From an uncultured Bacteroidia bacterium (lineage in GTDB: Bacteria > Bacteroidota > Bacteroidia > Bacteroidales > F082), in assembly GCA_902782455.1 (NCBI GenBank), contig CACZNA010000007.1:3865-67864 (forward strand): a DNA stretch of 64,000 nt, in the 5' to 3' direction. How positions within the stretch are numbered: position 1 is the first letter of the stretch; each line of letters opens with the position of its first letter. Shown here piece by piece: positions 1,527 through 39,738 of the stretch. The notes below the pieces were generated by a model. It was not told the origin of the DNA. It was given only the letters and a program-made list of their open reading frames with translations, and ran no database searches. Made by a program: the position numbers and the translations under genes.

Positions 1527-3122
1527 TTATTCTTTTATCCATTTTCCAGTTTTAATGAGAGCCGTTGAGCCGCTCGTTGAGTAGATTTTCCAAAAATACA
1601 TTCCCGAAGGCCAAGGCTCAGTATTGATAGCAATTTGATTTCCAAATATTTTGTTTTCAAAAACTTTGCGTCCGGTGAGGTCGTACACCTCCACCCTATC
1701 CGCTGCATCGCGAACCTCAATGTTGAGCACATCCTTGCCCGGATTGGGATAGACGCAACTTTGGGCTGCGGTTTCCTCCACTCCATTCGGGATGGGAAAC
1801 TCGATGGCTCCGAGGTCAATACGCTCGTCAACCACACGCGGACTGCCCGTGAAATCGGTGTCAGGATAATATTGGTTCATGTCGGTTGTCCCCGCATTGA
1901 CGCAAGGCGAGGTTTCCAACAATGCCCAATGAGTAGCCAAGGTTGAATGGTCGTATTCAGGGCCTAAACCTTCAGTCGGACGGACAAATTGGGGGTCGCC
2001 AAAGACATCTCCCGAGCCTGAGATCGTGCCGTTGCAGTTGTTGAAAACGGTCGGGTCGGGATGCGTCGGGTCCATTCGCTCGAACCAAACGCCCGTGTTG
2101 CCCCAAAAGATGTTGTTGTAGATTTTCTGCTGCCCATTCGTCCAAATCCCTGAGCCATAACCGTGTATGTGTCCCTCGCTATGGTTGTTGACAATCGTGT
2201 TGTTGTAATAATGGGAATAATTGGGAGCCGTGGTACCCAGCACTGGCGAATAGCCATCATTGTTGACAATGATATTGTCGTGGAAACGCCCCACTCCTTC
2301 CCAACCGAGATAGGCCGTGCTGCCGTGGTTGCCGTGGATGTAGTTATTATAGACTTGTGGCCCCGAAGCCGTAAGCGACAATTCGCCAACGTGCATATCA
2401 AGCGCAGTGCCGTAATGCCCCGAGTTGTTGTAAAACTCGCAGTTGCGCACCGTAAAATGCCGCAAGCCGTCCATTCTGATACTCGCACCCCACCAAGCGT
2501 AATTGTCGTGGAAAACGCAATGCTCCACAAGGACTGTCCCTGGGTTATGCACACTCATTCCGCCGCCACCTCCACCAGTCGTAGGCGAATTGCCATTGTG
2601 TTCTGAGCGGTTTTGCGAGAAACGGCAATGGGCGAAGTAACAGTATTTCTTGTTTCTCACCTCAACGCCGGCGCCGTACCTTTCCCCTTCGGGTGCGCCC
2701 GTGATGATCTTTCCGTACTTGACCTCACAAAACTCCATCATCACGCTGTCTTGGGAATTGCTTTGGTCGGAAATCAGGTGGATGCCTCGCCACCCCGTTT
2801 CCGCTGTAGGATTATGGAAATCGGTGGTGTCGCGTGCGGTGAAGGTGACGAGAACCTTATCCGCGCCCAAGGCATAAAACGAGCCGTTGTGGACGGTGAT
2901 GCGGTAATAGCCTTCCGCAATCACCCAAGTCCCACGCTCAATGGTGAGGCGCGCCGTGCCTTCCGTATCAGGCTCGATGACGACATCACCCACAAGTTTA
3001 ACAGTGTCGGCGTCCCAAAGCACATTGCCTTGGTATTCGCCCGAAACCTCGATGACATTTTGCGCGGCCAAAGTTGCCGTCAGCAGCGTCATCCAAATTG
3101 CAAAAAACAAACTTTTTTTCAT
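1527..3122 (-). CDS. T9SS-secreted right-handed beta-helix repeat protein (type-A C-terminal sorting domain)
   Basis: Start taken at MKKSLFFAIWMTLLTATLAAQ (signal peptide). Has repeated NN(x)I/V..N beta-helix-like motifs (YNNYIHGNHG, HDNIIVNNDG, YYNNTIVNNHS, IYNNIFWGN). The C-terminus VYPNPGKDVLNIEV..VEVYDLTGRKV..GMYFWKIY..KTGKWIKE is typical of a T9SS CTD. Confidence 0.8.
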   Translation of the reverse strand: MKKSLFFAIWMTLLTATLAAQNVIEVSGEYQGNVLWDADTVKLVGDVVIEPDTEGTARLTIERGTWVIAEGYYRITVHNGSFYALGADKVLVTFTARDTTDFHNPTAETGWRGIHLISDQSNSQDSVMMEFCEVKYGKIITGAPEGERYGAGVEVRNKKYCYFAHCRFSQNRSEHNGNSPTTGGGGGGMSVHNPGTVLVEHCVFHDNYAWWGASIRMDGLRHFTVRNCEFYNNSGHYGTALDMHVGELSLTASGPQVYNNYIHGNHGSTAYLGWEGVGRFHDNIIVNNDGYSPVLGTTAPNYSHYYNNTIVNNHSEGHIHGYGSGIWTNGQQKIYNNIFWGNTGVWFERMDPTHPDPTVFNNCNGTISGSGDVFGDPQFVRPTEGLGPEYDHSTLATHWALLETSPCVNAGTTDMNQYYPDTDFTGSPRVVDERIDLGAIEFPIPNGVEETAAQSCVYPNPGKDVLNIEVRDAADRVEVYDLTGRKVFENKIFGNQIAINTEPWPSGMYFWKIYSTSGSTALIKTGKWIKE

Positions 3123-3204
3123 GGCATAAAACAGTTTTAATGATACATTTAGTTTCATGCCTCCAAAATTATATAAAAAAATAGGGAGTTTTTCAACCCC
3201 AAAG

Positions 3205-3275
3205 GCCAAGTACAGATTTTTCTTTTCAACTCATTTTGATAATCAACGAGTTACGAGAAAAAAGTACAGATTTTT
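3205..3275. repeat. 71-bp direct repeat, promoter-proximal module of the cassette repeat (copy 1)
   Basis: gccaagtacagatttttcttttcaactcattttgataatcaacgagttacgagaaaaaagtacagattttt is 70/71 identical to 4158-4228 and close to about 6952-7022. Contains the TTGATAATCAA palindrome. Confidence 0.85.
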
Positions 3276-3364
3276 TTGGCGGTTAGGAGGAAAAAAAGGG
3301 GCAAAATCGCCCGATTTTAATCCTAAAATCAACTGAATTTCTTTGCTGATTTCCGACAATTCAC

Positions 3365-3372
3365 TATATTTG
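3365..3372 (+). promoter_or_regulatory. Bacteroidota -7 promoter box TATATTTG upstream of the rhuM remnant
   Basis: Matches the TAnnTTTG consensus, 20 nt upstream of ATG 3392. Confidence 0.4.
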
Positions 3373-3391
3373 CATAAAACTACAAATTGGT

Positions 3392-3902
3392 ATGAGCAAA
3401 CAAATCGAAATAAGGAACAGCACGGCGGAGTTTCTGATTTTCCAAGCAGAGGGAAAAGAAGACGGTATCCAGGTCGTTTACAAAGACGAAACCATTTGGT
3501 GTACGCAAAAGGCGATGGCAGCCTTGTTTGATGTGGACAGAAGCGTCATCACCAAGCATTTGAAAAACATCTTTGAACTCAACGAACTCAACCAAGATTC
3601 AGTATGTGCAATTTTTGCACATACTGCTGAAGACGGCAAGTCTTATAATACCCAATTCTACAATCTCGACGCCATCATCTCTGTGGGTTATCGTGTCAAT
3701 TCATTGAGAGCCACGCAATTCAGGCAGTGGTGTACCTATGTGCTTCGGCAGTTCACCATACGAGGTTATGTCATCGACAAGAAACGTATGGAAAACCGGG
3801 TTCATCCAAGACCGCCTTTTCCAATCCGACTTCGACAAGTTCGCCTACGAACACCTCTTGCCGCTTGACGACATCAAGGAGATTGAAGGGACAAAAGACT
3901 AA
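3392..3902 (+). pseudogene. rhuM: RhuM-family (virulence protein RhuM-like) gene with internal deletion and frameshift
   Basis: The N-terminal 135 aa (..TIWCTQKAMAALFDVDRSVITKHLKNIF..YNLDAIISVGYRVNSLRATQFRQWCTYVL..IDKKRMEN) are typical RhuM. After about 3798 the frame shifts. A different frame then reads GFIQDRLFQSDFDKFAYEHLLPLDDIKEIEGTKD*, which resembles the usual RhuM C-terminal end. The middle of the protein, roughly 150-200 aa, is missing. Confidence 0.7.
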
Positions 3903-3975
3903 AAACCAACCCCATCTCAACCCCAGCGCGTCGCCAAACGCATGGAATTGAGAGGGGCAGGCTTTGCTTTTCTCC

Positions 3976-4228
3976 CGCTTTGCGTCACTGCGAGGAACGA
4001 AGCAGTCCAAATAATTCGTTTCATTCGCCTAATTCGCCGTTTTATCGTTATCGGCGAATTGAGCGAATTTCGCGAATTGGATTGCATCACTTCGTTCGCA
4101 ATGACGCGAAGCGACCACAAAACTATAACAAAAATCCGCTGAAAAAACAAGATTTGAGCCAAGTACAGATTTTTCTTTTCAACTCATTTTGATAATCAAT
4201 GAGTTACGAGAAAAAAGTACAGATTTTT
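3976..4228. repeat. Mosaic intergenic cassette repeat, full copy (palindromic module + cgcaatgacgcgaagcg module + promoter-proximal module)
   Basis: About 90% identical to 6771-7026 along its length. Includes the imperfect 27-nt-arm palindrome aattcgtttcattcgcctaattcgccg / cggcgaattgagcgaatttcgcgaatt. Confidence 0.85.
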
Positions 4229-4229
4229 C

Positions 4230-4295
4230 TCAGTCCAAAAGCGCAAAAATCGGGTCAAAATCGGCCTTGTTATTGAGGTTGGAGCTGTATTTTCT
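4230..4295 (-). pseudogene. 3'-terminal remnant of a TPR/LuxR-type cassette regulator gene
   Basis: The minus-strand reading ..KYSSNLNNKADFDPIFALLD* parallels the C-terminus ..KYRSNLKNKADFDPISALVE* of the 7027-8685 gene. Homology stops about 15 bp before the stop codon of the adjacent HTH gene. Confidence 0.7.
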
Positions 4296-4310
4296 ACTAT
4301 GTTTTAGCGT

Positions 4311-4571
4311 TCAAACCTTTATCACATCTTCACCCAAAACCGTGGAGATTTTTGCCAATGTGCGAAGGGTGAAATTGTGCGTTCCTCCCACCCATCGCGA
4401 CACTTCTGGTTCGGTTTTGCCCATGAGGTGAGCAAATTCCTTTTGTGACAAACCTCTCGCTTTCAGTAGCGAATCAATCTTGTCGGCAATGGCCCACGAC
4501 ATGTCTACCTGCTTCTTCATCTCGGCAGGAATCTTGGCCAATTCTTTCTGAAACATGCTGCTTGCGCTCAT
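4311..4571 (-). CDS. XRE-family helix-turn-helix protein (HigA-like antitoxin candidate)
   Basis: LLKARGLSQKEFAHLMGKTEPEVSRWVGGTHNFTLRTLAKI is a classic XRE/Cro HTH. ATGA overlap with the upstream ORF. Confidence 0.75.
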   Translation of the reverse strand: MSASSMFQKELAKIPAEMKKQVDMSWAIADKIDSLLKARGLSQKEFAHLMGKTEPEVSRWVGGTHNFTLRTLAKISTVLGEDVIKV

Positions 4572-5053
4572 AACTCAAAATATTTGTTTTCGACACCAAC
4601 CAATTTTGTTTCTTTTATTTCGATTTCTCCAGCACGGATGTACGATTTTAACAAAGCATCAAATTTCTGTAAATCAATCACATAACCTTTCAGTTCTTCA
4701 CTTTCTTCGTAGGTTTTTGTTGTCTTCTCTCCACCATTCCCCAAAATCAATATCTTGTCTGTCAGTCTCAAACAATATAAGCGCAATTTGCTTTTCTCAA
4801 TGGGTAAGGCCACAACATTGTCATTCATTTTCCCTTCGGGGCGAAAATTTCTTTCTAATGCGCCATGTGAGGCTATCTTGTCAAGTGCAAGCAATATAAT
4901 CTGATAATCGCGCTGCAAAACAGCATTATCCTTGAATTTCTCCATAAACTTCTCAAATTCAGAGATTTCACTATTCTCAAAGATAATCGTGTAAAGACTG
5001 ACAAAATCTGTCTCATTCATAATGTCAAGTTTGGCCTGCTTCATATTAATCAT
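4568..5053 (-). CDS. Putative toxin partner (RelE/Gp49/HigB-like core motif, weak) of the XRE protein
   Basis: LRLYCLRLTDKILILGNGGEKTTKT resembles the Gp49/HigB-type core. Has a 4-bp overlap with the downstream HTH gene (toxin-first order). Start chosen at MINMKQ. The N-terminal ~90 aa are unassigned. Confidence 0.45.
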   Translation of the reverse strand: MINMKQAKLDIMNETDFVSLYTIIFENSEISEFEKFMEKFKDNAVLQRDYQIILLALDKIASHGALERNFRPEGKMNDNVVALPIEKSKLRLYCLRLTDKILILGNGGEKTTKTYEESEELKGYVIDLQKFDALLKSYIRAGEIEIKETKLVGVENKYFEL

Positions 5054-5198
5054 TATTGTTACATAGTGCAAAAATAAACATTTTTCGGAAACCAATTACT
5101 TTATATGCTATTTTTTTTGTAAAAAACCACCAAAAGCCCTCAACAGTCCCCAATCGCCATTGGGAACGGTTAGGCTTTCGATGGCTTGTCGGTTTACT

Positions 5199-6737
5199 TT
5201 ATTCCTTAACCCACTTCCCCGTTTCCGCGAGGGTCGTTGAGCCTATTGTAACGCCTGTAGTATAAACCTTCCAAACATAAGCCCCCGAAGGCCAACTTTC
5301 GGCATTTATCGAAGTGACATTCTCCGTAATTTCTTTCTTACAAACCAGTTTCCCGGTCAAGTCATAGATTTCCACACGGGCGTTCTGCAAAGCCGTGCGA
5401 ATATTCAGCACATCCTTCCCTGGATTGGGATAAACCGTGGCCACAGCAAAGCCATGCGAATGTGCCTCCTCTATATTCCAAAAATCCTCAAGCGTGATTC
5501 TGTAGACACAATAGTCTGTCGGGCCAGAATCTTTGCCACGGAAACAGCTCAAAATGCAACCTCCTGCCGGACAAGCCGAAATGGTATTGGGAGCCAAACT
5601 TAAGTCGGGCTTGAAGTAAATCTCACTCTGCTTGTTCAAATCTTCGTCCATCAGCCCTACATAGACATTGTAAAATTCCTCGCTTTCCGTTTGCCCAATT
5701 CCTTTGAATAATGGCAAATCCATCCAACCAAGCATAAACACCTCACCATTAGGACTGAAACTCATCCCATAGCCTTCATCCTTACGATAGGGATTGATGA
5801 TGCCAAAAGTCCAATTCACAAGGTTAAAGTCCTCGTCGTAAGCAGTCATAATTACATTCGTTTTTTCATCCTGATATTCCCATGCGTCTTCACTGCCAAC
5901 CGAATAAGTACGACCGTTGTATGGATTGAATCGCATTGAGCAAACATCGTTGGAAATAGCGTATAACCATCCACTCATATTCTGGTTGGAATAGTGTACC
6001 CTACCCACAGAATCAGCGACAGAGATTGTGTTAAGGTCGGCATCAAGGGTGTAACAATCAAAGTCATACCTCTCATTCATCAAAATGAAGCGAAAACCCA
6101 AAGAATCAGGTGCCGAGAAGAAAAAGTTGGTCAAAGAGGCTTTATAGTCGCGAAACACCCTTTCCTTTATTATATTGCCCTCATTGTTAAACTTTACCAA
6201 GTGCATGGATTCTTTTTGGTCAATCATCCAAAGACTGTCAACGGGATATGACAAAGTCAGGCTACCGTCCTTTGAAAAAACGGGGTAAATCATATTCGTG
6301 TAAAACTGGGTTACTGGTGGATGGTTGAAGTCAGACCCGTCCCAATTATAACTTGTGTATGTCAGTGACAGGTCTTCTGGGGCAATATCAACGACACAAA
6401 GTAGGGGAAGCGTGTCGTTGTCGTCTAAGCGGAGCGAGACATAACGAAACTTACCATTCATGAAATTGGCATGTCGCCATAATTCCAGTCGATTATCGGG
6501 CAAACTGATGGAATCAAGGATTTCGCCCTCGTATGTGATTTTCATCAGTGCACGGCTTCCTGATTCGGTTGTTGCAAATGCAAGAAAAGCATTCGCGTCG
6601 ATACAATACACACTTGTAACCCGAACATAATCCGACCTGTATATTACTTCGAGGTCTTGAGGATACTCTTGCGCTTTCATCGTCACCCCTTCCGCCATTA
6701 GGAGCGCAAGCAGGGTGAAAAGTCTAATGTTTTTCAT
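5199..6737 (-). CDS. T9SS cargo protein of unknown function (paralog of 8779-10458)
   Basis: Signal peptide MKNIRLFTLLALLMAEGVTMKAQ. CTD VYPNPGKDVLNIRTALQNARVEIYDLTGKLV..GAYVWKVY..ETGKWVKE. Shares FNxEGNI and pre-CTD EEAH..G motifs with 8779-10458. Confidence 0.8.
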   Translation of the reverse strand: MKNIRLFTLLALLMAEGVTMKAQEYPQDLEVIYRSDYVRVTSVYCIDANAFLAFATTESGSRALMKITYEGEILDSISLPDNRLELWRHANFMNGKFRYVSLRLDDNDTLPLLCVVDIAPEDLSLTYTSYNWDGSDFNHPPVTQFYTNMIYPVFSKDGSLTLSYPVDSLWMIDQKESMHLVKFNNEGNIIKERVFRDYKASLTNFFFSAPDSLGFRFILMNERYDFDCYTLDADLNTISVADSVGRVHYSNQNMSGWLYAISNDVCSMRFNPYNGRTYSVGSEDAWEYQDEKTNVIMTAYDEDFNLVNWTFGIINPYRKDEGYGMSFSPNGEVFMLGWMDLPLFKGIGQTESEEFYNVYVGLMDEDLNKQSEIYFKPDLSLAPNTISACPAGGCILSCFRGKDSGPTDYCVYRITLEDFWNIEEAHSHGFAVATVYPNPGKDVLNIRTALQNARVEIYDLTGKLVCKKEITENVTSINAESWPSGAYVWKVYTTGVTIGSTTLAETGKWVKE

Positions 6738-6770
6738 TGTGTTTTAGTTTTGATGTTTTGCCATTCAGTT

Positions 6771-7026
6771 GCGCTTGTCGTCGCTGCGAGGAACGAAGCC
6801 GTCCAAATAATTCGTTTCATTCGCCTAATTCGCCGTTTTATCGTTATCGGCGAATTGAACGGATTTCGCGAATTGGATTGCTTCACTTCGTTCGCAATGA
6901 CGCGAAGCGACCACAAAACTATAACAAAAAAACCATCGAAAAAACAAGATTTGAGCCAAGTACAGATTTTTGTTTTCAACTCATTTTGATAATCAACGAG
7001 TCACGATAAAATAATACAATTTTTTC
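6771..7026. repeat. Mosaic intergenic cassette repeat, full copy
   Basis: Same module order as 3976-4228. Fills the whole spacer between the regulator stop (7027) and the cargo start (6737). Confidence 0.85.
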
Positions 7027-8685
7027 TCACTCGACAAGCGCAGAAATCGGGTCAAAATCGGCCTTGTTTTTGAGGTTTGAGCGGTATTTCGCCACGGTGT
7101 TTTCGCTCAGGCCGAGCAGGTCGGCCTCTTCCTTGATGCGGAAGCCCAGGAACGACAAAATGACGAGATGCGTTTCCGTCTTGTTGAGGTCGGGATAGGC
7201 CGATTTCATTTTCCCAATGCCTTGGGGATAGGCCGCCTCGAAAGCCTCGATGATGCGCTGCAAGCGGTCTTTCTGCCCCGATTGGTAAATCGCCAAAACT
7301 TGTTGGTTGAGCATCTCCTTCTGCTGGGTAGTGAGTTGCTCCAACTCAGTTTGCAGTTGACGTTGCGCCTCGCGGAGTTTCAGCGTTTCCAATTCCTTGT
7401 TCTTGCGGTAGCGCAATGCAGTCCAAAGCACTGCCATCAGCACGATGACCAACAGGGCTATCCACAAATAGAGGCGGTAACGTTTCAACTGCTGCTCGCT
7501 TTCCAAACGCTGGATTTCCAACTGCTTGTCGTATTCTTCCTTCACTTGCGCCACGGCTTTTTGCTCCGCACCATAGTCGGGGCTGGAACTCAGCAACTTA
7601 TCAGCATAAATGGCGGCATTGGCCTCGTCGCCCAAGGCTTTGTAGGAACCGTAAAGACGCTTGTATAAGAAGGTGAGGTCGCTACTCCTTTGAGTCATTT
7701 CCTCGGACATCAAACCATAATGAATGCAAGAATCGTATTGCTGCAAATCGAAATAGGCACGGCAAATGTTTTCTGTCAACTCATATTGATAACTTTTCGC
7801 CATTGGAGAATGGACAAAACGCAAGTCATCCAATCCCTTTTGGCTCTCCGCTATGCTCTGATGAAGCATATTCTTACCATCATCTTCTTTTTCAAAATGT
7901 TGTGTCTCAAAACAATAGAGATAGTAATCGGCTAATGCACTATGGAAATAAGAAGCCTCAACCGTGTCGCCGATGATTTCTGCGGAGTGAAGGCCGATTT
8001 GATAATACATCAGGCAACTGTCGTATTCGCCGAGAAGCAGATACGCCATCCCCAACGGAAAGGCTGTGATAAGCCGATTTCGATGATACTGTTTTTCAGC
8101 ATAATAGCCATCGGCAAGTTTCAAGTGATCGACACCTTCGCGATGGTATCCCGAGTTGGTGTAAGACATGCCAAGCCGCTGATGGATAGCATATTTCAGT
8201 CGGTCGATTTCGTTCTTTTCATCGGTGGGCTTGAGCGAAAAGCGCACAAAACGCTCGTCCACATGCTGGCATTGCTTGATGCTTTGCAAAGCCTTCAAAC
8301 GGTAGTCAAGCACATGTTGCTCACCCAAGTTTTTCACTTGGGCCATACGCGACAAAATCCAATAAGTCATGGATTCGAAATATTTGTCTTTTCCACCAAC
8401 AAATTGCTTTTCAGCTACTTGCATCAACGAATCGAAGTCATTGTATTTGCGAAGGCCATCATTCACCTTGGCCCGCAGCAGGCAATAATGCGCCCGTTCC
8501 TTCTCCGAAAGGGCTGAAACATTCAGCGTGTCAAGGATTTGCCTTGCGCTGTCGAGGTTGGTTTGGTAGAAACACTCCACGCGATAGAGCATGTCCTCCT
8601 CGGGCGGTGGAGGCGTTTCGCGCTTGGAGCAAGCAGCCACCAACACGACAAAAAGCAAAAGCCATATAAAAAACATGCGTTTCAT
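7027..8685 (-). CDS. Membrane-anchored one-component regulator: lipoprotein signal, TPR-like helical domain, single TM, coiled coil, C-terminal LuxR/GerE-type HTH
   Basis: Has the lipobox MKRMFFIWLLLFVVLVAAC|SK and the TM segment LYLWIALLVIVLMAVLWTALRY. The C-terminus PDLNKTETHLVILSFLGFRIKEEADLLGLSENTVAKYRSNLKNK is LuxR-like. A TACCTTTG box lies just upstream of the ATG. Confidence 0.65.
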   Translation of the reverse strand: MKRMFFIWLLLFVVLVAACSKRETPPPPEEDMLYRVECFYQTNLDSARQILDTLNVSALSEKERAHYCLLRAKVNDGLRKYNDFDSLMQVAEKQFVGGKDKYFESMTYWILSRMAQVKNLGEQHVLDYRLKALQSIKQCQHVDERFVRFSLKPTDEKNEIDRLKYAIHQRLGMSYTNSGYHREGVDHLKLADGYYAEKQYHRNRLITAFPLGMAYLLLGEYDSCLMYYQIGLHSAEIIGDTVEASYFHSALADYYLYCFETQHFEKEDDGKNMLHQSIAESQKGLDDLRFVHSPMAKSYQYELTENICRAYFDLQQYDSCIHYGLMSEEMTQRSSDLTFLYKRLYGSYKALGDEANAAIYADKLLSSSPDYGAEQKAVAQVKEEYDKQLEIQRLESEQQLKRYRLYLWIALLVIVLMAVLWTALRYRKNKELETLKLREAQRQLQTELEQLTTQQKEMLNQQVLAIYQSGQKDRLQRIIEAFEAAYPQGIGKMKSAYPDLNKTETHLVILSFLGFRIKEEADLLGLSENTVAKYRSNLKNKADFDPISALVE

Positions 8686-8778
8686 GGCTGCAAAGGTAGC
8701 TTTTTTTGCAACGCCAGCAAAAAAAGGCCAGCCACTTTCGTGACTGACCTATATGCTTCCACTCTATCCTTTACGCAA

Positions 8779-10458
8779 TTATTTTTCCTTCACCCACTTC
8801 CCCGTCTCGACCAAGGTCCCTGAGCCTGTCGAAGGGCCGCCATCCGAAGTAAACACCTTCCAAACATAAACGCCCTCGACCCAATCCCCAGCATCAATCG
8901 TCGTCACACTCTCCGTGAGGGCTTGGCTGTGGACGAGCCTGCCGTTGGTGTCGTACACTTCCACGCGGGCGTTCTGCAATCCAGTCCTGATGTTCAGCAC
9001 ATCCTTCCCCGGATTAGGATAGGCCACCGCCACCTTCAAGCCGTTGTCATGCGCCTCGTCGATACCTTCAAAAGCCTCAGCGGGGAATTTGGTTATCGTC
9101 GTCCAGCGTTGGTCGGTGTTGTCGAGGTTTTTGGATTGATAGACAAGCAACAAGCCGCCGTCCCTTGTAGCCAAAATGCTCGTGGCGGTACTATGGATGC
9201 GTTCCCCCTCATGGTCATAATACAACGTTGATATTGTGTCGAAACCGGGAGTTAAACGCTCTATCATCATCCATGAATCGAGATTGCTCCAAAATCCTAT
9301 GTTCAACGTGTAGGCAAAGCAAAGGCTGTTGTCATCAAACAATTCGATGCCACTTGGCCAATCCAAATCATCGGAAGTGCGAGTGATGTATTGTAACGAA
9401 GGAATGTAGGGCTCAGTTCCGTCAATATTGTCGTCCAACTCATAAAGCCTCACGTCGTAATCAGTGGCTTTCGCGGGGTTGTTTGACGCTAATTCAACGG
9501 CAAAATAGGTTGTGTTGTGCCGACTTCTTTTTACCTTGATTCCTTGCATTAGGTCATCAAATTGCGAAAGCGGATCAATTTTCTTGCAAGGCCTCACCTT
9601 TAGCAGATTGAGATTATTGTCAAGATAAACAACATGATAATAGTATCCATCATCGACAAAACGGAACGGACAATACAACATATAACCCGCTTCCGATTTG
9701 AACAGCAATTCCCTTCCCAGAAAATGAAGACAACTGCCGCCACTACCCATGTAGGGAAGCTCAAATCCCTGTTGTTCAAGGATATTCCCTTCAAAATCCA
9801 TACGAAATGCGAACAAGGAATCGGGGCCATGCGGGTCGGTCGGATACCTGCTGTATGTCTTCATATAGGCACCAACTATTATGTCATCATCAACGACAGG
9901 AGGAACCATCACCAATGCACCACATTGTTCGAGCGGAACATCTTCCCATTGTTGGTCACGGTATTCCGAGGTGTCAATTTTGATATGGTGTTCGTAAGCC
10001 TCCACAATGTTCAGTTGGTCGTCAAGTTTGTACAATCCGTAAATACCTTCATCGGGCGGATTGTCATAGTTGAGAAAATAATTGAACGAAGTATAGTCGT
10101 GGTCAGGGGTGTAGGAGGCCATCATATACAATTCACCTTTTTTGTTTTCAATGATGTGCGGGTGTCCTCCATAGTAGGCTGGTTTGAAATAAAGGTTTTC
10201 CGCCAACTCCGTTCCGTCAGCCGCAAACATTTTTAAAGCGGGGTGTGGCGCATAAAAATCACCCCAATCGCACTTATAATATTGATTTGTCGAAACAACG
10301 ATGTTTCCCGAGGAAGTTTCGTATGGTTGGACCAAATCAAATTCCTCCTCATCGGAAAAACGCCATTCGTAGGACTGCTCCCACTCCTGCCCAAAGGCCT
10401 TGGCACCGACAAACAATGCGAGAGCGAAAGCAACTGAAAGTTTAAAAATCTTGTCCAT
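8779..10458 (-). CDS. T9SS cargo protein of unknown function (paralog of 5199-6737)
   Basis: Start taken at MDKIFKLSVAFALALFVGAKAFGQ. CTD AYPNPGKDVLNIRTGLQNARVEVYDTNGRLV..GVYVWKVF..ETGKWVKEK. Confidence 0.8.
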   Translation of the reverse strand: MDKIFKLSVAFALALFVGAKAFGQEWEQSYEWRFSDEEEFDLVQPYETSSGNIVVSTNQYYKCDWGDFYAPHPALKMFAADGTELAENLYFKPAYYGGHPHIIENKKGELYMMASYTPDHDYTSFNYFLNYDNPPDEGIYGLYKLDDQLNIVEAYEHHIKIDTSEYRDQQWEDVPLEQCGALVMVPPVVDDDIIVGAYMKTYSRYPTDPHGPDSLFAFRMDFEGNILEQQGFELPYMGSGGSCLHFLGRELLFKSEAGYMLYCPFRFVDDGYYYHVVYLDNNLNLLKVRPCKKIDPLSQFDDLMQGIKVKRSRHNTTYFAVELASNNPAKATDYDVRLYELDDNIDGTEPYIPSLQYITRTSDDLDWPSGIELFDDNSLCFAYTLNIGFWSNLDSWMMIERLTPGFDTISTLYYDHEGERIHSTATSILATRDGGLLLVYQSKNLDNTDQRWTTITKFPAEAFEGIDEAHDNGLKVAVAYPNPGKDVLNIRTGLQNARVEVYDTNGRLVHSQALTESVTTIDAGDWVEGVYVWKVFTSDGGPSTGSGTLVETGKWVKEK

Positions 10459-10478
10459 AGTTTCTTGTTTTTGAATTT

Positions 10479-10683
10479 GCGACACAAAACTATAACAAAA
10501 ATCCGCCAAAAAAGCCAATTCCATCGGTTAATCCACTATTTTTCCAAAAATCAATATTGATTGTCAACAGATTACGAAAAGTTTTTCCACTAAAAAGTTG
10601 TTGGAAATCCATGATAAATTCGCAAAATTCGTTTCATTCGCCGGCAAAAACAACGGCGAATTATACGAATTAAACGAATTTTG
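10479..10683. repeat. Mosaic intergenic cassette repeat with rearranged module order
   Basis: gcgacacaaaactataacaaaaatccgcc comes first. Next is the atcaatattgat palindrome plus cagattacgaaaag. The palindromic module aattcgtttcattcgccggcaaaaacaacggcgaatt comes last, next to the regulator stop. Confidence 0.7.
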
Positions 10684-12168
10684 TCACCCGACAAACCGCC
10701 TCCAAAGCACCTCAAACGAATCGGCTTGCGTCTTTCGCTTGATGGAAGTGCGGTATTTCGAGACGGTGTTTTCGCGCAGGTCAAGGATGTCGGCGATTTC
10801 CTTCGTGCGGAAAGGGAACATGGAAAGCACACAAATGTCGAGTTCGGTTTCGTTCAGGTCGGGATGGGCAGCCTTCAGTTTCGTCAAAGCATCGGGATAG
10901 GACTCGTTGAACACTTCGAGGATACGGCTGAAAGTGTTGTTGCGCTTGTCGCCGTAGATGGCCTGCACCTTCATCCTCAATGCTTCTTGCGCCTGCATTT
11001 CCAAAGCACCGTGCGCCTCATGCAGGTCGCGCTCGATGGCTTCATGTTTTCGGGTCATCCTTTTTCGATAGACGTGATGGTAGCCTACGAAAGTGGCCGC
11101 CATAGCGAGAAACACCAGCACCCAAAGCAGCGTTTTCCCACCTTTTTGCGGCTCCCTTTCCTTCAAATAGGCGTTCAGCACCGAAAGCACCTCGGCGTTG
11201 TGGTTCAATTCGGTCACCCGTTTTTCCTCCTGTACCTTCACTAAAGCGTAATAAGGCATTGCCCTCAGCGTGTCGCCCAACTCCTCATAACAATCGGCCA
11301 AACCGTAGGCAGCCTGTGTCTTAATGTTCTCATCCTTCGATTGATAGGCGACTTCCAAATCGGCCAAAGCCGCCGCATAGTCACGCGCCCGATAGTGGAC
11401 AAAGGCCTTTTCAATCGCGTTTTTGTGAAACAATTGGCAGTCACTATCTACCAAGGCAAAACTCTTCTCAAAATAATAGATGGCGGAATCGTATTGATGG
11501 CTGTGCCGCAAACTATTGGCGAGTGAGTTTTCCAACAATGCCGTTTCGTAAGGATAACGGTCGGCATTGGCGATGCGGAGGCCTTCGTCACAATAAAAAT
11601 AGGCTGTGTCGCCCTCTCCGGGTTTCCCGAAACGCTCGTAAAGCAAACCGAGGTTGGCCATCGAGCGGAGCATCCAAGCCGTGTCGCCAACAGAGGAGGC
11701 GCAATCCAAGCCCAAGCGGGCAAACTTCGTGCTGCATTGCTCGTCGGAGAAATTGAAAGCCAAACGCGAAAGGATGATACAAATCTTGCTGTAAAGCCTT
11801 CCAACGGGTGCCTGACGGGCATCGAAATGGGTGTCCAAGATGTTCAGGGCTTCCACGAAATGCGCCGTTGCCTTTTCCGAAAGTTTGTTCTTGTCAAAAA
11901 GCAGGCATCCCGTCAGGTAATGGCACCGCGCCTGCATCCAATAATCACGAGGCGTGTCGCTTTTTATATAAAAACCTAAAGCTGGACTTACGAGAGAATC
12001 CGTGAAGTCACGGTACTTGGAACCGTCAAATGTTGCTTCTACCGAGTCGATTAGCAATGCGTATTCCGCATCTTTAACGTCGTTGGGCGACAAAAAGTCG
12101 GTTTGCTGCCGAATGCAGGCCGCCAAAAAGCCCAATAAAACAAAACCGATATAAAACAGACGTTTCAT
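10684..12168 (-). CDS. Membrane-anchored TPR-like / LuxR-HTH regulator (paralog of 7027-8685)
   Basis: Start taken at MKRLFYIGFVLLGFLAAC (lipobox). TM LLWVLVFLAMAATFVGY. C-terminus PDLNETELDICVLSMFPFRTKEIADILDLRENTVSKYRTSIKRK. Confidence 0.65.
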   Translation of the reverse strand: MKRLFYIGFVLLGFLAACIRQQTDFLSPNDVKDAEYALLIDSVEATFDGSKYRDFTDSLVSPALGFYIKSDTPRDYWMQARCHYLTGCLLFDKNKLSEKATAHFVEALNILDTHFDARQAPVGRLYSKICIILSRLAFNFSDEQCSTKFARLGLDCASSVGDTAWMLRSMANLGLLYERFGKPGEGDTAYFYCDEGLRIANADRYPYETALLENSLANSLRHSHQYDSAIYYFEKSFALVDSDCQLFHKNAIEKAFVHYRARDYAAALADLEVAYQSKDENIKTQAAYGLADCYEELGDTLRAMPYYALVKVQEEKRVTELNHNAEVLSVLNAYLKEREPQKGGKTLLWVLVFLAMAATFVGYHHVYRKRMTRKHEAIERDLHEAHGALEMQAQEALRMKVQAIYGDKRNNTFSRILEVFNESYPDALTKLKAAHPDLNETELDICVLSMFPFRTKEIADILDLRENTVSKYRTSIKRKTQADSFEVLWRRFVG

Positions 12169-12205
12169 AAGTGCAAAGCAACTCAAATGCTTTATTGTAA
12201 AACTA

Positions 12206-12628
12206 TCATTTCGAATGTTCAGCAAACCAAACATTCAACATATCGGCTATGGTTTTGACAAACACTTGCGCTTGAGGCAACAATTCATCCACGGTTTCAA
12301 GCGTATGGTTGATAAAATCATCATAATCGCCAGTTGAGCGTTTGGAAAACAACCGACTGAAAAAGCGACCATGCTCGGGTGAAACTTTCCCAGTCAGCAC
12401 AAAATTCAAACCGAACTGATGACGGACACCATCGTGTGACTTGGTAACGATGCCATTCGCAATCAACAGAGCACTTACGGCATAATAGCAAGCATAATAC
12501 ATCCGATTGACAGCCGTGTTATAAAAGCCGTTTTCCCTATGGCTTTCCACTTCCGCCAAGGTGTTCCAAGCGTTTTCCAACCTGTAACGCACGATGTCAA
12601 TCCTCTGTTGTTCAGTTAGTCCAGTCAT
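12206..12628 (-). CDS. HEPN domain protein (toxin of an MNT-HEPN pair)
   Basis: MTGLTEQQRIDIVRYRLENAWNTLAEVE..NRMYYACYYAVSALL..SHDGVRHQFG.. has a HEPN-like layout. ATGA overlap with the upstream nucleotidyltransferase gene. Confidence 0.75.
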   Translation of the reverse strand: MTGLTEQQRIDIVRYRLENAWNTLAEVESHRENGFYNTAVNRMYYACYYAVSALLIANGIVTKSHDGVRHQFGLNFVLTGKVSPEHGRFFSRLFSKRSTGDYDDFINHTLETVDELLPQAQVFVKTIADMLNVWFAEHSK

Positions 12629-12933
12629 AGTTTCACTCTTTCGTTGACGACATTGATATAAAAAGGAGTCACAGGTTTCCCCCATTGGGATTTTGGGAGA
12701 ATCAAAGGATTAATGAGAACGCCTGACTGGAGTTCAATTTGATAAAGCGGAGTAAAGATTCTGTTCTCATCCTCACCCGAAACCGAAGGCTGGTCGACTA
12801 AAATCAACAAATCAATGTCAGAATCCGGCCTCGCATCGCCTCTCGCCTCGCTTCCATAAAGCCAGGCCTCCATGCGATAAGGCAACAAATCTAAGGCTTT
12901 TCTAATCGACTGAATGACACTTGTCCGCTTCAT
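12625..12933 (-). CDS. Minimal nucleotidyltransferase (MNT antitoxin-type)
   Basis: The LYGSEARGDARPDSDIDLLILV motif (GS..D.D) is typical of the Pol-beta superfamily NTase. Confidence 0.8.
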   Translation of the reverse strand: MKRTSVIQSIRKALDLLPYRMEAWLYGSEARGDARPDSDIDLLILVDQPSVSGEDENRIFTPLYQIELQSGVLINPLILPKSQWGKPVTPFYINVVNERVKL

Positions 12934-38289: not shown

Positions 38290-39618
38290 TCAAATCTGTT
38301 TCTTTCGCCAATCCGCTTTCCAAATATACACCAGCGAAATCAACCCAATGGAGATGTTGTAGACCCACTCAGCAGTCCATACGCCGGCGATAGTGGAAGT
38401 CTTGGTCATGAGGAAGACATAGATGATGTAGGCGATAAGGATGCCAAACTCCAAGGCCATGGCCGCAGTGGTGTTGCCCGTGCCCGAAACGGCCTCGAAG
38501 AAGGTCATGGAGAAAGCCCCCAACAGCGTGGCAACACAAATCACATAGACCGAGGGAATAGCCGCCTGCGCCAAAGCCATGTCGTCAGTATAAATCTGCA
38601 AGACTAAATGCGGAATGGCCGCCACCACAGCGACCAAGACAAGACCACACAAGAAACTGTTTTTCACCACTTTCCAGATAGTGGCCATCACCTCGTTGCT
38701 CTTGCCCTCGCCAATGATGCGACTCGTCAGGGTGTTGGCGGTCGAAGCGAAAGCGATGCCCGGAATGATGAGAATCATATACGTACTTCGCACCACCGAC
38801 GAAACGCCGATGGCCGTCTCGCCCATCTTCTCAATCATCACGAAGAAAATAAACCACGCGCCAAAAGAGAACAGCCGCTGAATCATGCTCGGGAAGGCCA
38901 CCTTGAGGATGTCGCCCATCAAGGCGGGCTGCCATTGGTGCCAACGGAACATGCCGTATTCCTCATGCGGGATTTTGATATAAGTGTAAATCCAGAAGAA
39001 GCAGAACGCCGTAATTTCGGCCATCAGCGAGGCCAAGGCCGCGCCGCCGATACCCATTTCGGGCAAACCCGCGTTGCCGAAAATCAAGGCCCAGTCGAAA
39101 AAGATGTTGACGACGGCCATGATGATTGTTGAGAACGTGATGACTTTGGTGCTGCTGATGCCGACATAGAACGAGCGGAACAGAAAATTGAACACCACGA
39201 AGAAGATGCCGAACTGCCTGAACCTCAGGTACTCGCTCGCCGCCGCATAAATATGCTCCGACTCGATGATGATGTGCAACAACTTGTGGCTGAAGAAGAA
39301 AAGAATGCTGAACAAGAAGATGCCCAAGCCCAGCACAAACAAAGCCCCATGTTGGAACACCACACCGATTTTACTGAAGTTGCCCTCACCGAAGCGTCGC
39401 GCGATAAAGATTTGGATGCCCACGGCAAAGCCCATCGCCAAGGTGGTGAAGACGAAATAATACAGGCCCGCCATCATGGAGGCACTCAGTTCGTTGGTGC
39501 CAAGATGACCGAGAAAGGCTGTATCAGTGAAGGTGATGATGGTTTGCGCAAGGTTGCCCAACATGATGGGATATGCAATGCGCCAGATTTCCTTGTTGGT
39601 AACGGTGGATTTAATCAT
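38290..39618 (-). CDS. MATE family efflux transporter
   Basis: 12-TM profile. N-terminus IWRIAYPIMLGNLAQTIITFTDTAFLGHLG is typical of MATE. Confidence 0.85.
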   Translation of the reverse strand: MIKSTVTNKEIWRIAYPIMLGNLAQTIITFTDTAFLGHLGTNELSASMMAGLYYFVFTTLAMGFAVGIQIFIARRFGEGNFSKIGVVFQHGALFVLGLGIFLFSILFFFSHKLLHIIIESEHIYAAASEYLRFRQFGIFFVVFNFLFRSFYVGISSTKVITFSTIIMAVVNIFFDWALIFGNAGLPEMGIGGAALASLMAEITAFCFFWIYTYIKIPHEEYGMFRWHQWQPALMGDILKVAFPSMIQRLFSFGAWFIFFVMIEKMGETAIGVSSVVRSTYMILIIPGIAFASTANTLTSRIIGEGKSNEVMATIWKVVKNSFLCGLVLVAVVAAIPHLVLQIYTDDMALAQAAIPSVYVICVATLLGAFSMTFFEAVSGTGNTTAAMALEFGILIAYIIYVFLMTKTSTIAGVWTAEWVYNISIGLISLVYIWKADWRKKQI

Positions 39619-39738
39619 GGGGCAAAATTAGTCAATTCTTCCGCACCTCTAAATCAATTTTCTCAGTTTTCACAATTTTTCTTTCTCAATATCCCGAAAA
39701 AATGTATTTTTGCCTCTGTCAAAAAAAGAACTTCAAAA

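Follow-up and report, generated by a model that had tools for sequence, protein, structure and literature searches.

Tandem regulator and cargo genes in an uncultured Bacteroidales bacterium suggest one-component control of individual type IX secretion substrates

What does a gene for a membrane-bound, putative DNA-binding protein do directly upstream of a gene for a secreted protein, and why is the pair repeated? The question is raised by a 64,000-nucleotide stretch of DNA from an uncultured Bacteroidia bacterium (Bacteroidales; F082), positions 3,865 to 67,864 of contig CACZNA010000007.1 in assembly GCA_902782455.1, which was analyzed as a whole and is called the window here. Its minus strand shows the order regulator, spacer, and cargo of the type IX secretion system (T9SS) twice: Reg1 (10684-12168) with cargo1 (8779-10458), and Reg2 (7027-8685) with cargo2 (5199-6737). 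The original prediction, made from the sequence alone, placed these four open reading frames (ORFs) at the same coordinates, and ORF calls and translations bear them out. The array extends past 5199-12168 with a third T9SS cargo gene, cargo3 (1527-3119, minus strand), and an orphan copy of the spacer. We propose that the units are cargo-specific transmembrane regulators, most likely activators, that read direct-repeat boxes in the spacer, and we give this explanation as a whole a probability of roughly 60%. Its core had been predicted and is supported by our data: a reiterated unit in which a membrane-tethered transcription factor that senses the periplasm accompanies a T9SS-secreted protein. 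The gene order and the protein features also stood, and several quantitative details did not. For example, the spacers given as 205 and 256 bp measure 225 nt (10459-10683) and 289 nt (6738-7026).

Reg1 and Reg2 are 27% identical over 400 amino acids and share one architecture. Reg1 has a lipoprotein signal (LAAC), a tetratricopeptide repeat (TPR) sensor, one transmembrane (TM) helix, a long helix, and a LuxR/GerE-type helix-turn-helix (HTH) with a recognition helix containing ..LRENTVSKYRTS.., and it is at or above the Pfam gathering score for TPR_12, TPR_2 and GerE (PF00196, 24.2 bits against a cutoff of 23.5). Reg2 has a lipoprotein signal (VAAC, Cys19), a TPR superhelix at ~30-366, a helix at 374-468 and an HTH bundle at 474-541; its Pfam matches, Sigma70_r4_2, DUF6377 and TPR_8, are all below threshold. 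In the AlphaFold2 model of Reg2 (mean predicted local distance difference test score, pLDDT, 84.7) the TPR superhelix is confident, the TM segment (~405-424) lies inside one unbroken helix, and the C-terminal helices span 474-485, 489-496, 502-512, 517-524 and 528-541, with the HTH at 502-541. The recognition helix is E528-K541. We denote by X1 and X2 the two recognition-helix positions in ..NTV-X1-X2-YR..; in Reg2 these are A532 and K533. The lipobox, the single internal TM helix, the TPR-like region and the C-terminal HTH had all been predicted for both proteins, and each finds support in the motifs, hydropathy, Pfam matches and model. The lipobox and TM features also hold across the family: a hydropathy scan finds exactly one internal TM segment in 77/82 members, and 65/82 have a lipobox-like motif.

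The C-terminal ~50 residues align without gaps to residues 156-200 of E. coli NarL, in its DNA-binding domain, and carry the TV..Y/H.. signature; the recognition-helix motif (S/T)E(S/N)TV is present in the C-terminal helical bundle. In a sample of 40 family members, 12 match GerE at E < 0.01 and 12 match Sigma70_r4_2, and HisKA, HATPase and receiver domains are absent from the Pfam matches of the regulators. PDB profile matches of Reg2 are TPR proteins and, weakly, LuxR-type HTH proteins (EsrB, EL222, DosR, GerE). Foldseek places its sensor near the peptide-binding TPR superhelices of LGN/Pins and Rap. In databases the regulator is annotated as 'hypothetical protein' (NCBI) or as a 'CsgD family' regulator (JGI). 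By profile, the family comprises 80 representative clusters (50% identity) at E ≤ 1e-30 and 2379 at E ≤ 1e-10, the latter count being possibly inflated by TPR-only matches.

The regulators appear to have promoters of their own. We read promoters as a -33 T-run/TTTG and a -7 TAnnTTTG; a sigma-70 promoter scan is unsuited to Bacteroidetes, and only its terminator output was used. A -7-like TTGCTTTG (12174-12181, minus strand) stands 5 nt before the Reg1 ATG, and a -7 element TACCTTTG (8691-8698, minus strand) ends 5 nt before the Reg2 ATG at 8685. Of 108 regulators with a lipobox-defined start, 62 have a TAnnTTTG that ends shortly before the ATG, at 5 nt in 56 and at 4 nt in 6, which implies that the regulator mRNAs would be leaderless or near-leaderless. 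After cargo1, a terminator-like hairpin with a T-run (8725-8750, minus strand; an 11-pair stem with 6 GC pairs) separates cargo1 from Reg2 and sets them in separate transcription units. Two regulator genes stand back to back before the first cargo in some arrays from elsewhere (L019 at 5953-9097, L016, and L148 at 2732-5850); the gaps are 19-23 nt in L019 and L148, and the second gene of L148 is a regulator by inference only.

All three cargos score above the gathering threshold for the T9SS C-terminal domain (CTD), Por_Secre_tail (PF18962), with 39.2, 48.9 and 49.6 bits for cargo1, cargo2 and cargo3 against a cutoff of 27, and reach 36-45 on TIGR04183 against a cutoff of 23. This bears out their assignment as proteins with a T9SS CTD. 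Their translated N-termini are hydrophobic and end in ..AQ/GQE. Cargo1 has a signal peptide, an N-terminal domain without assigned function, and a type A CTD that passes both the Pfam and NCBIfam cutoffs. Because its promoter (10485-10492) falls within a longer version of the ORF, the start at 10458 is favoured. Cargo2 has a signal peptide, a beta-propeller and a type A CTD (AlphaFold2 pLDDT 79.8); its Foldseek matches are generic propellers (CylK, PorZ, WD40-like), and more than 726 full-length homologues exist, none of them named. Cargo3 has a signal peptide, a right-handed beta-helix, a choice-of-anchor Q domain and a T9SS CTD (Pfam, NCBIfam). The CTDs had been described as nearly identical; we find 67% identity (52/78). 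By BLASTP, similarity between the cargos is limited to the C-terminal ~130 amino acids and full-length remote homology appears in profile-profile comparison only. There, hhalign aligns the cargo1 and cargo2 families over 488 columns, with the CTD dominating the score, and the N-terminal domain of cargo1 is probably a beta-propeller like that of cargo2. From these features, the cargos are predicted to be exported by the T9SS. Many CTDs of these arrays extend ~17-27 residues past the Pfam match (e.g. 5199-5270 and 8779-8850) and end in a conserved ..ETGKW(I/V)KE; the match covers only positions 1-66 of the 75 in the Pfam model.

Is the pairing a peculiarity of the window? We fetched 144 loci by regulator similarity alone, 64 from species-representative genomes and 80 from metagenomes, called their ORFs and searched them with a hidden Markov model (HMM) of the regulator and an iterated HMM of the CTD. 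An HMM built from the three window cargos was too narrow: of 10 ORFs that it had passed over, 7 carry Por_Secre_tail by Pfam, and the iterated HMM was substituted for it. The genome loci come nearly all from metagenome-assembled genomes (MAGs) of uncultured Bacteroidales or Bacteroidia, many ruminant-derived; where the original prediction spoke of Prevotellaceae, the organisms are to be described as uncultured Bacteroidales. A co-directional T9SS-CTD gene directly follows 103 (80%) of the 129 regulators with a complete downstream ORF, and 47/62 in the genome loci alone. Linkage in other genomes, which the prediction had named as its own test, is thus observed. The gap between regulator and cargo has a median of about 154-155 nt (154 nt over the 103 pairs by one count), and 79/103 gaps fall within 130-190 nt. 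The CTD ORFs share the strand of the regulator in 252/254 cases. Independent gene calls with precomputed Pfam matches reproduce the pattern. In the exceptions, an AbiEii-like ATPase or Fic/DOC gene is typically inserted, and in most such loci a CTD gene lies further downstream.

The cargos beside the regulators are diverse. They fall into 22 sequence clusters and include beta-propeller, beta-helix, IgGFc_binding/PKD, GLUG and C10-peptidase types; in L146, for instance, a CTD-bearing C10 peptidase lies 156 nt downstream of a family regulator. SusC/SusD proteins are absent from the regulator neighbours scanned. An extra cognate box pair (the boxes are described below) was found in a single locus, L010, where it is syntenic to the operator of cargo3 in the window. 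Within ±3-6 kb, therefore, a regulator usually serves just its neighbour. Among 21 MAGs with at least 2 recovered regulators, only 2/46 co-resident pairs have the same recognition-helix octet.

The spacer between regulator and cargo follows a common plan. It runs from the regulator stop codon through a distal box, a central TTG-N5-CA(A/G), a proximal box and a -33 T-run/TTTG to TAnnTTTG, with the distal box within a few nt of the stop codon and the cargo ATG 25-40 nt after TAnnTTTG. The two boxes form a direct repeat that matches at 10 or more of 12 positions in 91/151 spacers, against a mean of 1.9 in shuffled spacers. Their spacing is bimodal, 53-57 bp in 46 spacers and 64-66 bp in 45, with none at 58-63; the two classes differ by a single turn of the helix. 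At 54 or 65-66 bp, the boxes are separated by 5 or 6 turns and thus lie on the same face of the DNA. The proximal box begins 50 nt before the -7 element in 43/91 spacers and 49-51 nt before it in 67/91; counted from the inferred start site, it covers roughly -61 to -48 and so precedes the -33 element. The central TTG-N5-CA[AG] occurs in 71/91 spacers, against 1.6 expected. Its offset from the distal box is fixed at ~28-32 nt in both spacing classes, so the extra helical turn falls between the central element and the proximal box. An RNA hairpin or terminator was considered as the reason for the central conservation, and RNAalifold on 22 diverse inter-box sequences predicted no pairs, so that this reason was rejected.

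In the window, the Reg1-to-cargo1 control region (10485-10683, minus strand), located by box and spacing searches, carries a hairpin element AATTCGCCG..CGGCGAAT (~10616-10682), an extra ATGGATT (10606-10612), a distal TAGTGGA (10586-10592), the central TTGACAATCAA (10557-10567), which overlaps ATCAATATTGAT (10550-10561), a proximal TAGTGGA (10532-10538) 54 bp from the distal one, and the -7 element TAGTTTTG (10485-10492, minus strand) of the cargo1 promoter. The same layout recurs in L053, L056, L057, L018, L058, L061 and L001. Motif search and spacer comparison place the Reg2-to-cargo2 operator and promoter at 6914-7026 (minus strand), with a degenerate distal box AAAAAATTGTATT (7013-7025), the central TTGATTATCAA (6986-6996), a proximal box AAAAATCTGTACTT (6958-6971), and the -7 element TAGTTTTG (6914-6921) 50 nt from the start of the proximal box. 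Between this promoter and cargo2 lies a long 5' untranslated region (UTR) with nested palindromic elements (6750-6912, minus strand) that resemble repetitive extragenic palindromes or miniature inverted-repeat transposable elements (REP/MITE-like).

Cargo3 has no adjoining regulator, but a Reg2-type operator and promoter precede it (3164-3275, minus strand). Two boxes AAAAATCTGTACTT stand at 3262-3275 and 3208-3221, 54 bp apart, with the central TTGATTATCAA at 3236-3246 and the -7 element TAATTTTG at 3164-3171. The operators of cargo3 and cargo2 are identical at 66/71 nt, and the arrangement is syntenic in L010. Cargo3 is a probable second target of Reg2.

These maps refine what had been said of the spacers. 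They had been called mosaic, which is correct, and conserved over their whole length, which is not: the two window spacers share ~98 alignable nt at 73% identity and an AATTCG hairpin in opposite orientation. The palindromes placed in them (TTGATTATCAA, TTGACAATCAA and ATCAATATTGAT) are present at the positions given above and turn out to be the shared central element. The reading of the spacer as promoter and operator stands: it contains operator-like sites beside a conserved promoter of the Bacteroidetes type. It is the direct-repeat boxes, however, and not the palindromes, that vary with the recognition helix of the regulator.

The boxes differ between subfamilies, with cores that include TCTGTAC, CCTATAT, TGTGTAC, TCCGTAC, GGCGTAC and CTTGTAC, and TAGTGGA in the Reg1 type. 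They covary with the recognition helix. When X2 is Gln, core position 4 is A in 16/16 spacers; with other residues, nearly all Lys, it is A in 1/75. When X1 is Arg, core position 2 is G in 11/11 spacers, and otherwise in 4/80. Counted over clusters at 80% identity, the Gln/A association is 7/7 versus 1/33 (p = 4e-7) and the Arg/G association 4/4 versus 3/33 (p = 4e-4). Single-linkage clustering at 60% identity or less merges nearly all sequences and leaves no statistical power; the 80% clusters and parsimony were used instead. On a tree of the cytoplasmic (C-terminal) domain built without the X1 and X2 columns, Fitch parsimony requires four steps for Gln, three for Arg and five for each of the matching box bases. 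Every Gln or Arg clade has the matching base, and sister clades differ in both characters, for example LQ/TCTATAA beside NK/CTTGTAC. X1 and X2 align with K188 and V189 of NarL, two of its three base-contacting residues (PMC10853779). The 6-nt core is identical between both boxes in 56/91 spacers. Direct readout of the boxes by the HTH is argued from these repeated and chemically sensible co-changes, usually in both boxes at once. A third covarying position was sought at the Ser/Thr after YR (NarL K192) and at the residue before NT; neither showed a consistent pattern, and no claim is made.

The box follows the HTH and not the sensor. Regulators with sensors 88-94% identical and HTHs 70-74% identical have different boxes, whereas regulators with sensors ~20% identical and HTHs ~90% identical have the same box. 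The cargo behaves the other way: a cargo cluster is shared by 61% of the pairs with sensors at least 60% identical and differing HTHs, and by 14% of the pairs with HTHs at least 85% identical and differing sensors (7 pairs only). The cargo family thus tracks the sensor although the HTH and the operator lie between sensor and cargo on the DNA. This fits the replacement of an HTH-plus-operator cassette inside otherwise conserved units, and it hints that the signal is related to the cargo.

Together these observations suggest a mechanism in which each unit would be a self-contained circuit. The N-terminus of the regulator would be exported and lipid-anchored, with the TPR superhelix in the periplasm, and the single helix would span the inner membrane and lead through a cytoplasmic coiled-coil-like linker to the C-terminal LuxR/GerE-type HTH. 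The regulator, whose mRNA would start at its own promoter with little or no leader, would read two direct-repeat boxes in the ~150-nt spacer just past its own stop codon. These boxes flank the shared central TTG-N5-CAA, the proximal one just upstream of the Bacteroidetes -33/-7 promoter. A periplasmic signal at the TPR domain would then, most likely, activate the promoter and with it the expression of at least one protein secreted by the T9SS. Within a genome, paralogous units use different HTH/box pairs, which would keep them separate, and the HTH and its operator are exchanged jointly as a cassette. Architecture, linkage, operator layout and residue-to-base covariation are observed, whereas binding, activation rather than repression, the signal and export by the T9SS are the predicted parts of this scheme.

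The sign of regulation could also be different. With the same architecture and the same sites, the regulator could act as a repressor, or in both directions, until the periplasmic signal releases it. A repression loop could form between the two sites, which lie 5-6 turns from each other on either side of a central element, and the NarL/LuxR family includes dual regulators, narL itself being annotated as one. However, the proximal box, near -61 to -48, ends before the -33 element begins, a placement usual for activators, and the closest functional analogues, SusR and BguR, are activators. The near-consensus promoter elements fit either sign. We consider repression unlikely, though less so than the readings that follow.

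Another reading keeps the regulator as a DNA-binding protein and moves its site. As in the original prediction, a regulator dimer would bind the central palindrome (TTGATTATCAA and its variants), and the direct repeats would be bound by another factor or merely be co-inherited. LuxR-type HTH dimers commonly use inverted repeats, and nothing else between the boxes is as conserved as the central element, present in 71/91 spacers at its fixed offset. It is more likely a DNA-level motif, as RNAalifold finds no conserved hairpin there. The central element nevertheless does not change along with the recognition helix; it is the boxes that do, at two chemically sensible positions, and both boxes usually carry the same variant, as the shared cores indicate. 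Its half-sites are also centred only ~6 bp from each other, which leaves little room for two HTH domains. Binding at the palindrome in place of the boxes therefore appears improbable.

The spacer might instead be a recombination or mobility site that shuffles cassettes, so that adjacency would reflect co-mobilization and not regulation. The arrays are indeed reiterated and mosaic, HTH-plus-operator segments are swapped between near-identical genes, the arrays are broken up by REP/MITE-like elements and by toxin-antitoxin, Fic, AbiEii and RhuM genes, and the orphan copy at 4000-4292 has a truncated regulator end. Yet neither the window nor the loci examined show a recombinase gene associated with the units, the layout keeps a fixed distance of 50 nt and a constant helical phase to the -33/-7 promoter, and the box bases covary with DNA-contacting residues. 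Recombination between repeats may be a by-product, and mobility as the whole explanation is very improbable. Equally hard to sustain is the idea that the TPR protein is a periplasmic or inner-membrane chaperone or adaptor for the adjoining cargo and that its C-terminal domain has no DNA-binding role: its TPR domain does resemble the peptide-binding superhelices of LGN/Pins and Rap, the cargo family tracks the sensor rather than the HTH, and Reg2 is under the Pfam HTH thresholds, but the C-terminal ~50 residues align gapless to the NarL DNA-binding domain (with 12/40 members matching GerE and 12/40 Sigma70_r4_2), recognition-helix residues covary with the adjacent DNA, and a cargo-binding role in sensing would be compatible with a regulator that reads the boxes.

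Several observations weigh against the proposal that the HTH reads the boxes to control a T9SS cargo. The repeat is below 10/12 in 60/151 spacers, the distal box of the Reg2 spacer has 3 mismatches, and the central element is common to all subfamilies. The 3' end of the HTH-coding sequence lies within ~100 nt of the boxes, so that co-inheritance by recombination inflates the raw covariation counts, and many of the loci are orthologues from related MAGs. One locus departs from the Lys/G rule (L025, Thr-Lys with the core CCAATAC), and a V-to-A change at NTV accompanies GAA in some lineages and not in others. Reg2 reaches no Pfam HTH threshold (Sigma70_r4_2 17.6 against a cutoff of 25.7; GerE none). 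The TM helix has charges on both sides, and the positive-inside rule thus leaves the topology unsettled. T9SS machinery genes are absent from the window ORFs scanned, and no search aimed at them was made in the genome.

If the HTH reads the boxes, what does the sensor read? One answer is that the TPR domain senses its own cargo in transit, for instance the CTD, a pro-region or a segment not yet folded, or else something that the activity of the cargo produces. Each unit would then be a private feedback circuit, with dozens per cell and swappable HTH/operator cassettes that follow a readable code (Lys/G, Gln/A, Arg/G). The idea is allowed by the cargo family following the sensor and by the likeness of the sensor to peptide-binding TPR domains. 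We regard it as speculative and rather unlikely. If true, it would couple the transcription of each T9SS substrate to its export or to substrate availability.

The regulator family had been described as having no known function, and it is not wholly unplaced: it is distant kin of the BT3442 family and of SusR/DUF6377-type one-component regulators. SusR is the model case of membrane one-component regulation in this phylum. SusR and SusR-like proteins (NF058541; DUF6377) share the exported sensor, the single TM helix, the C-terminal HTH and the lack of a phosphorelay. The operators predicted for SusR-like regulators consist of two direct repeats on one face of the DNA, at a distance of 67 or 77 bp (PMC3878776), the same long-spacer form as the repeats 53-57 or 64-66 bp apart described here. 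In sequence the kinship is distant. The DUF6377 similarity is weak and covers the last TPR, the TM helix and the linker in 15/40 members (17.4 bits versus 36.7), and the SusR model matches 1/40 members, over the HTH only (16.8 bits versus 480). SusR-like regulators target susC/susD, in contrast to the T9SS-CTD proteins here, and the present units are reiterated in tandem with many distinct HTH/box types per genome.

The best curated match is the BT3442 family (NF053779), which is found in 34/40 members (best E = 7e-18) over the N-terminal ~75 residues and the C-terminus. Its proteins are of similar length (563 amino acids), but Reg2 scores 38.8 bits against a cutoff of 940 and is therefore not a member. 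BT_3442 of B. thetaiotaomicron is mentioned only as a TPR protein at the start of a gene cluster that encodes surface lipoproteins and MACPF proteins (PMC2954219). The neighbours of BT3442 are lipoproteins rather than T9SS cargos, and we found no description of its function or DNA target in the literature. BguR of Formosa agariphila is a proven activator of its adjoining gene cluster, and its authors name SusR alone as having a comparable architecture (preprint 10.64898/2026.01.10.698779). It shares with the present family the signal peptide, periplasmic sensor, one TM helix, helical linker and GerE-type HTH. BguR differs in its length (940 amino acids), in its double beta-propeller plus Y_Y_Y sensor and in its target, a laminarin polysaccharide utilization locus (PUL), whereas here the sensor is a lipid-anchored, all-helical TPR superhelix and the target a T9SS cargo gene.

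More remote relatives share single features. With NarL/FixJ/LuxR (GerE) proteins the family has in common the gapless HTH alignment and covarying residues at the positions of NarL K188/V189; it has no receiver or autoinducer domain, is membrane-tethered, and has widely spaced direct repeats in place of a compact palindrome or a 7-2-7 arrangement. In ToxR and CadC, too, one protein senses outside the cytoplasm and binds DNA inside without a phosphorelay. Their topology is reversed, with an N-terminal DNA-binding domain of the winged-helix OmpR type. The resemblance to RRNPP/Rap peptide receptors is one of fold only (Rap ranks 33-45, TM-scores 0.31-0.34), and the regulator TPR, lying between a signal peptide and a TM helix, would be exported, unlike the cytoplasmic Rap-type receptors. 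Taken together, the family is outside SusR, DUF6377 and BT3442 in sequence membership and without PUL association, and it shares their architecture and operator logic.

To our knowledge, the regulation described for the T9SS is global, through PorX/PorY and SigP, and we found no report in the literature of cargo-specific T9SS sensors or of a link between such regulators and T9SS cargo. In a large regulator family, most members directly precede a T9SS cargo gene, which leads to the prediction that gut and rumen Bacteroidales may choose which surface proteins to deploy cargo by cargo. The membrane one-component design of SusR and BguR would thereby extend beyond glycan utilization, and the uncharacterised BT3442-like proteins of Bacteroides would gain a testable role. 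The matched HTH/box variants number more than ten types and include two independently recurring residue-to-base rules. As natural orthogonal LuxR-type pairs, they may be useful for studies of cross-talk between paralogues and as genetic parts for Bacteroidales.

The window also holds remnants and repeats around the array. The orphan copy of the Reg2-type unit (4000-4292, minus strand) is 88-93% identical to 6796-7089. It opens with a Reg2-like C-terminal remnant, ..NLNNKADFDPIFALLD and stop (~4240-4292, the last ~17 codons), and retains boxes at 4215-4228 and 4161-4174, the central TTGATTATCAA at 4189-4199 and a -7 element at 4118-4125. It is followed by a palindromic UTR element and not by a cargo ORF. 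A small palindromic AATTCGCCG...CGGCGAATT is present in four copies and has the look of a REP/MITE-like hairpin: one behind the cargo3 stop codon (1461-1486), one in the orphan 5'UTR (4014-4039) and one in the cargo2 5'UTR (6810-6835), all on the minus strand, and one, inverted, right behind the Reg1 stop codon (10654-10679, plus strand). An outer inverted repeat, GTCGCTTCGCGTCATTGCGAACGAAG... / ...GCTTCGTTCCTCGCAGYGAC, encloses the AATTCG hairpin (6810-6835) and is found at 6750-6912 and 3984-4110. The cargo2 5'UTR is 188 nt long with a predicted RNA fold of -64 kcal/mol (z = -4.7). Its insertion is also present in L010, and the outer element alone in L005 and L011.

Toxin-antitoxin or defence-type genes interrupt or flank arrays in the window and in other loci. 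In the window these are a toxin-antitoxin-like pair (4311-5095) of an HTH_3 gene and a 175-residue partner that belongs to no known family, a RhuM fragment on the plus strand (3392-3868), and a HEPN gene that abuts Reg1 and stands beside a 102-residue ORF (12206-12933). In L002-L004, L013 and L016, AbiEii-like AAA_21 or Fic/DOC genes lie between regulator and cargo. Elsewhere in the window, on the plus strand, are a further T9SS cargo with PKD and Por_Secre_tail domains (39253-42165) and tandem C10 peptidases with Inhibitor_I69 pro-domains (52189-54651 and 54672-57077). No regulator of the Reg1/Reg2 family is among the scanned ORFs adjoining these three genes.

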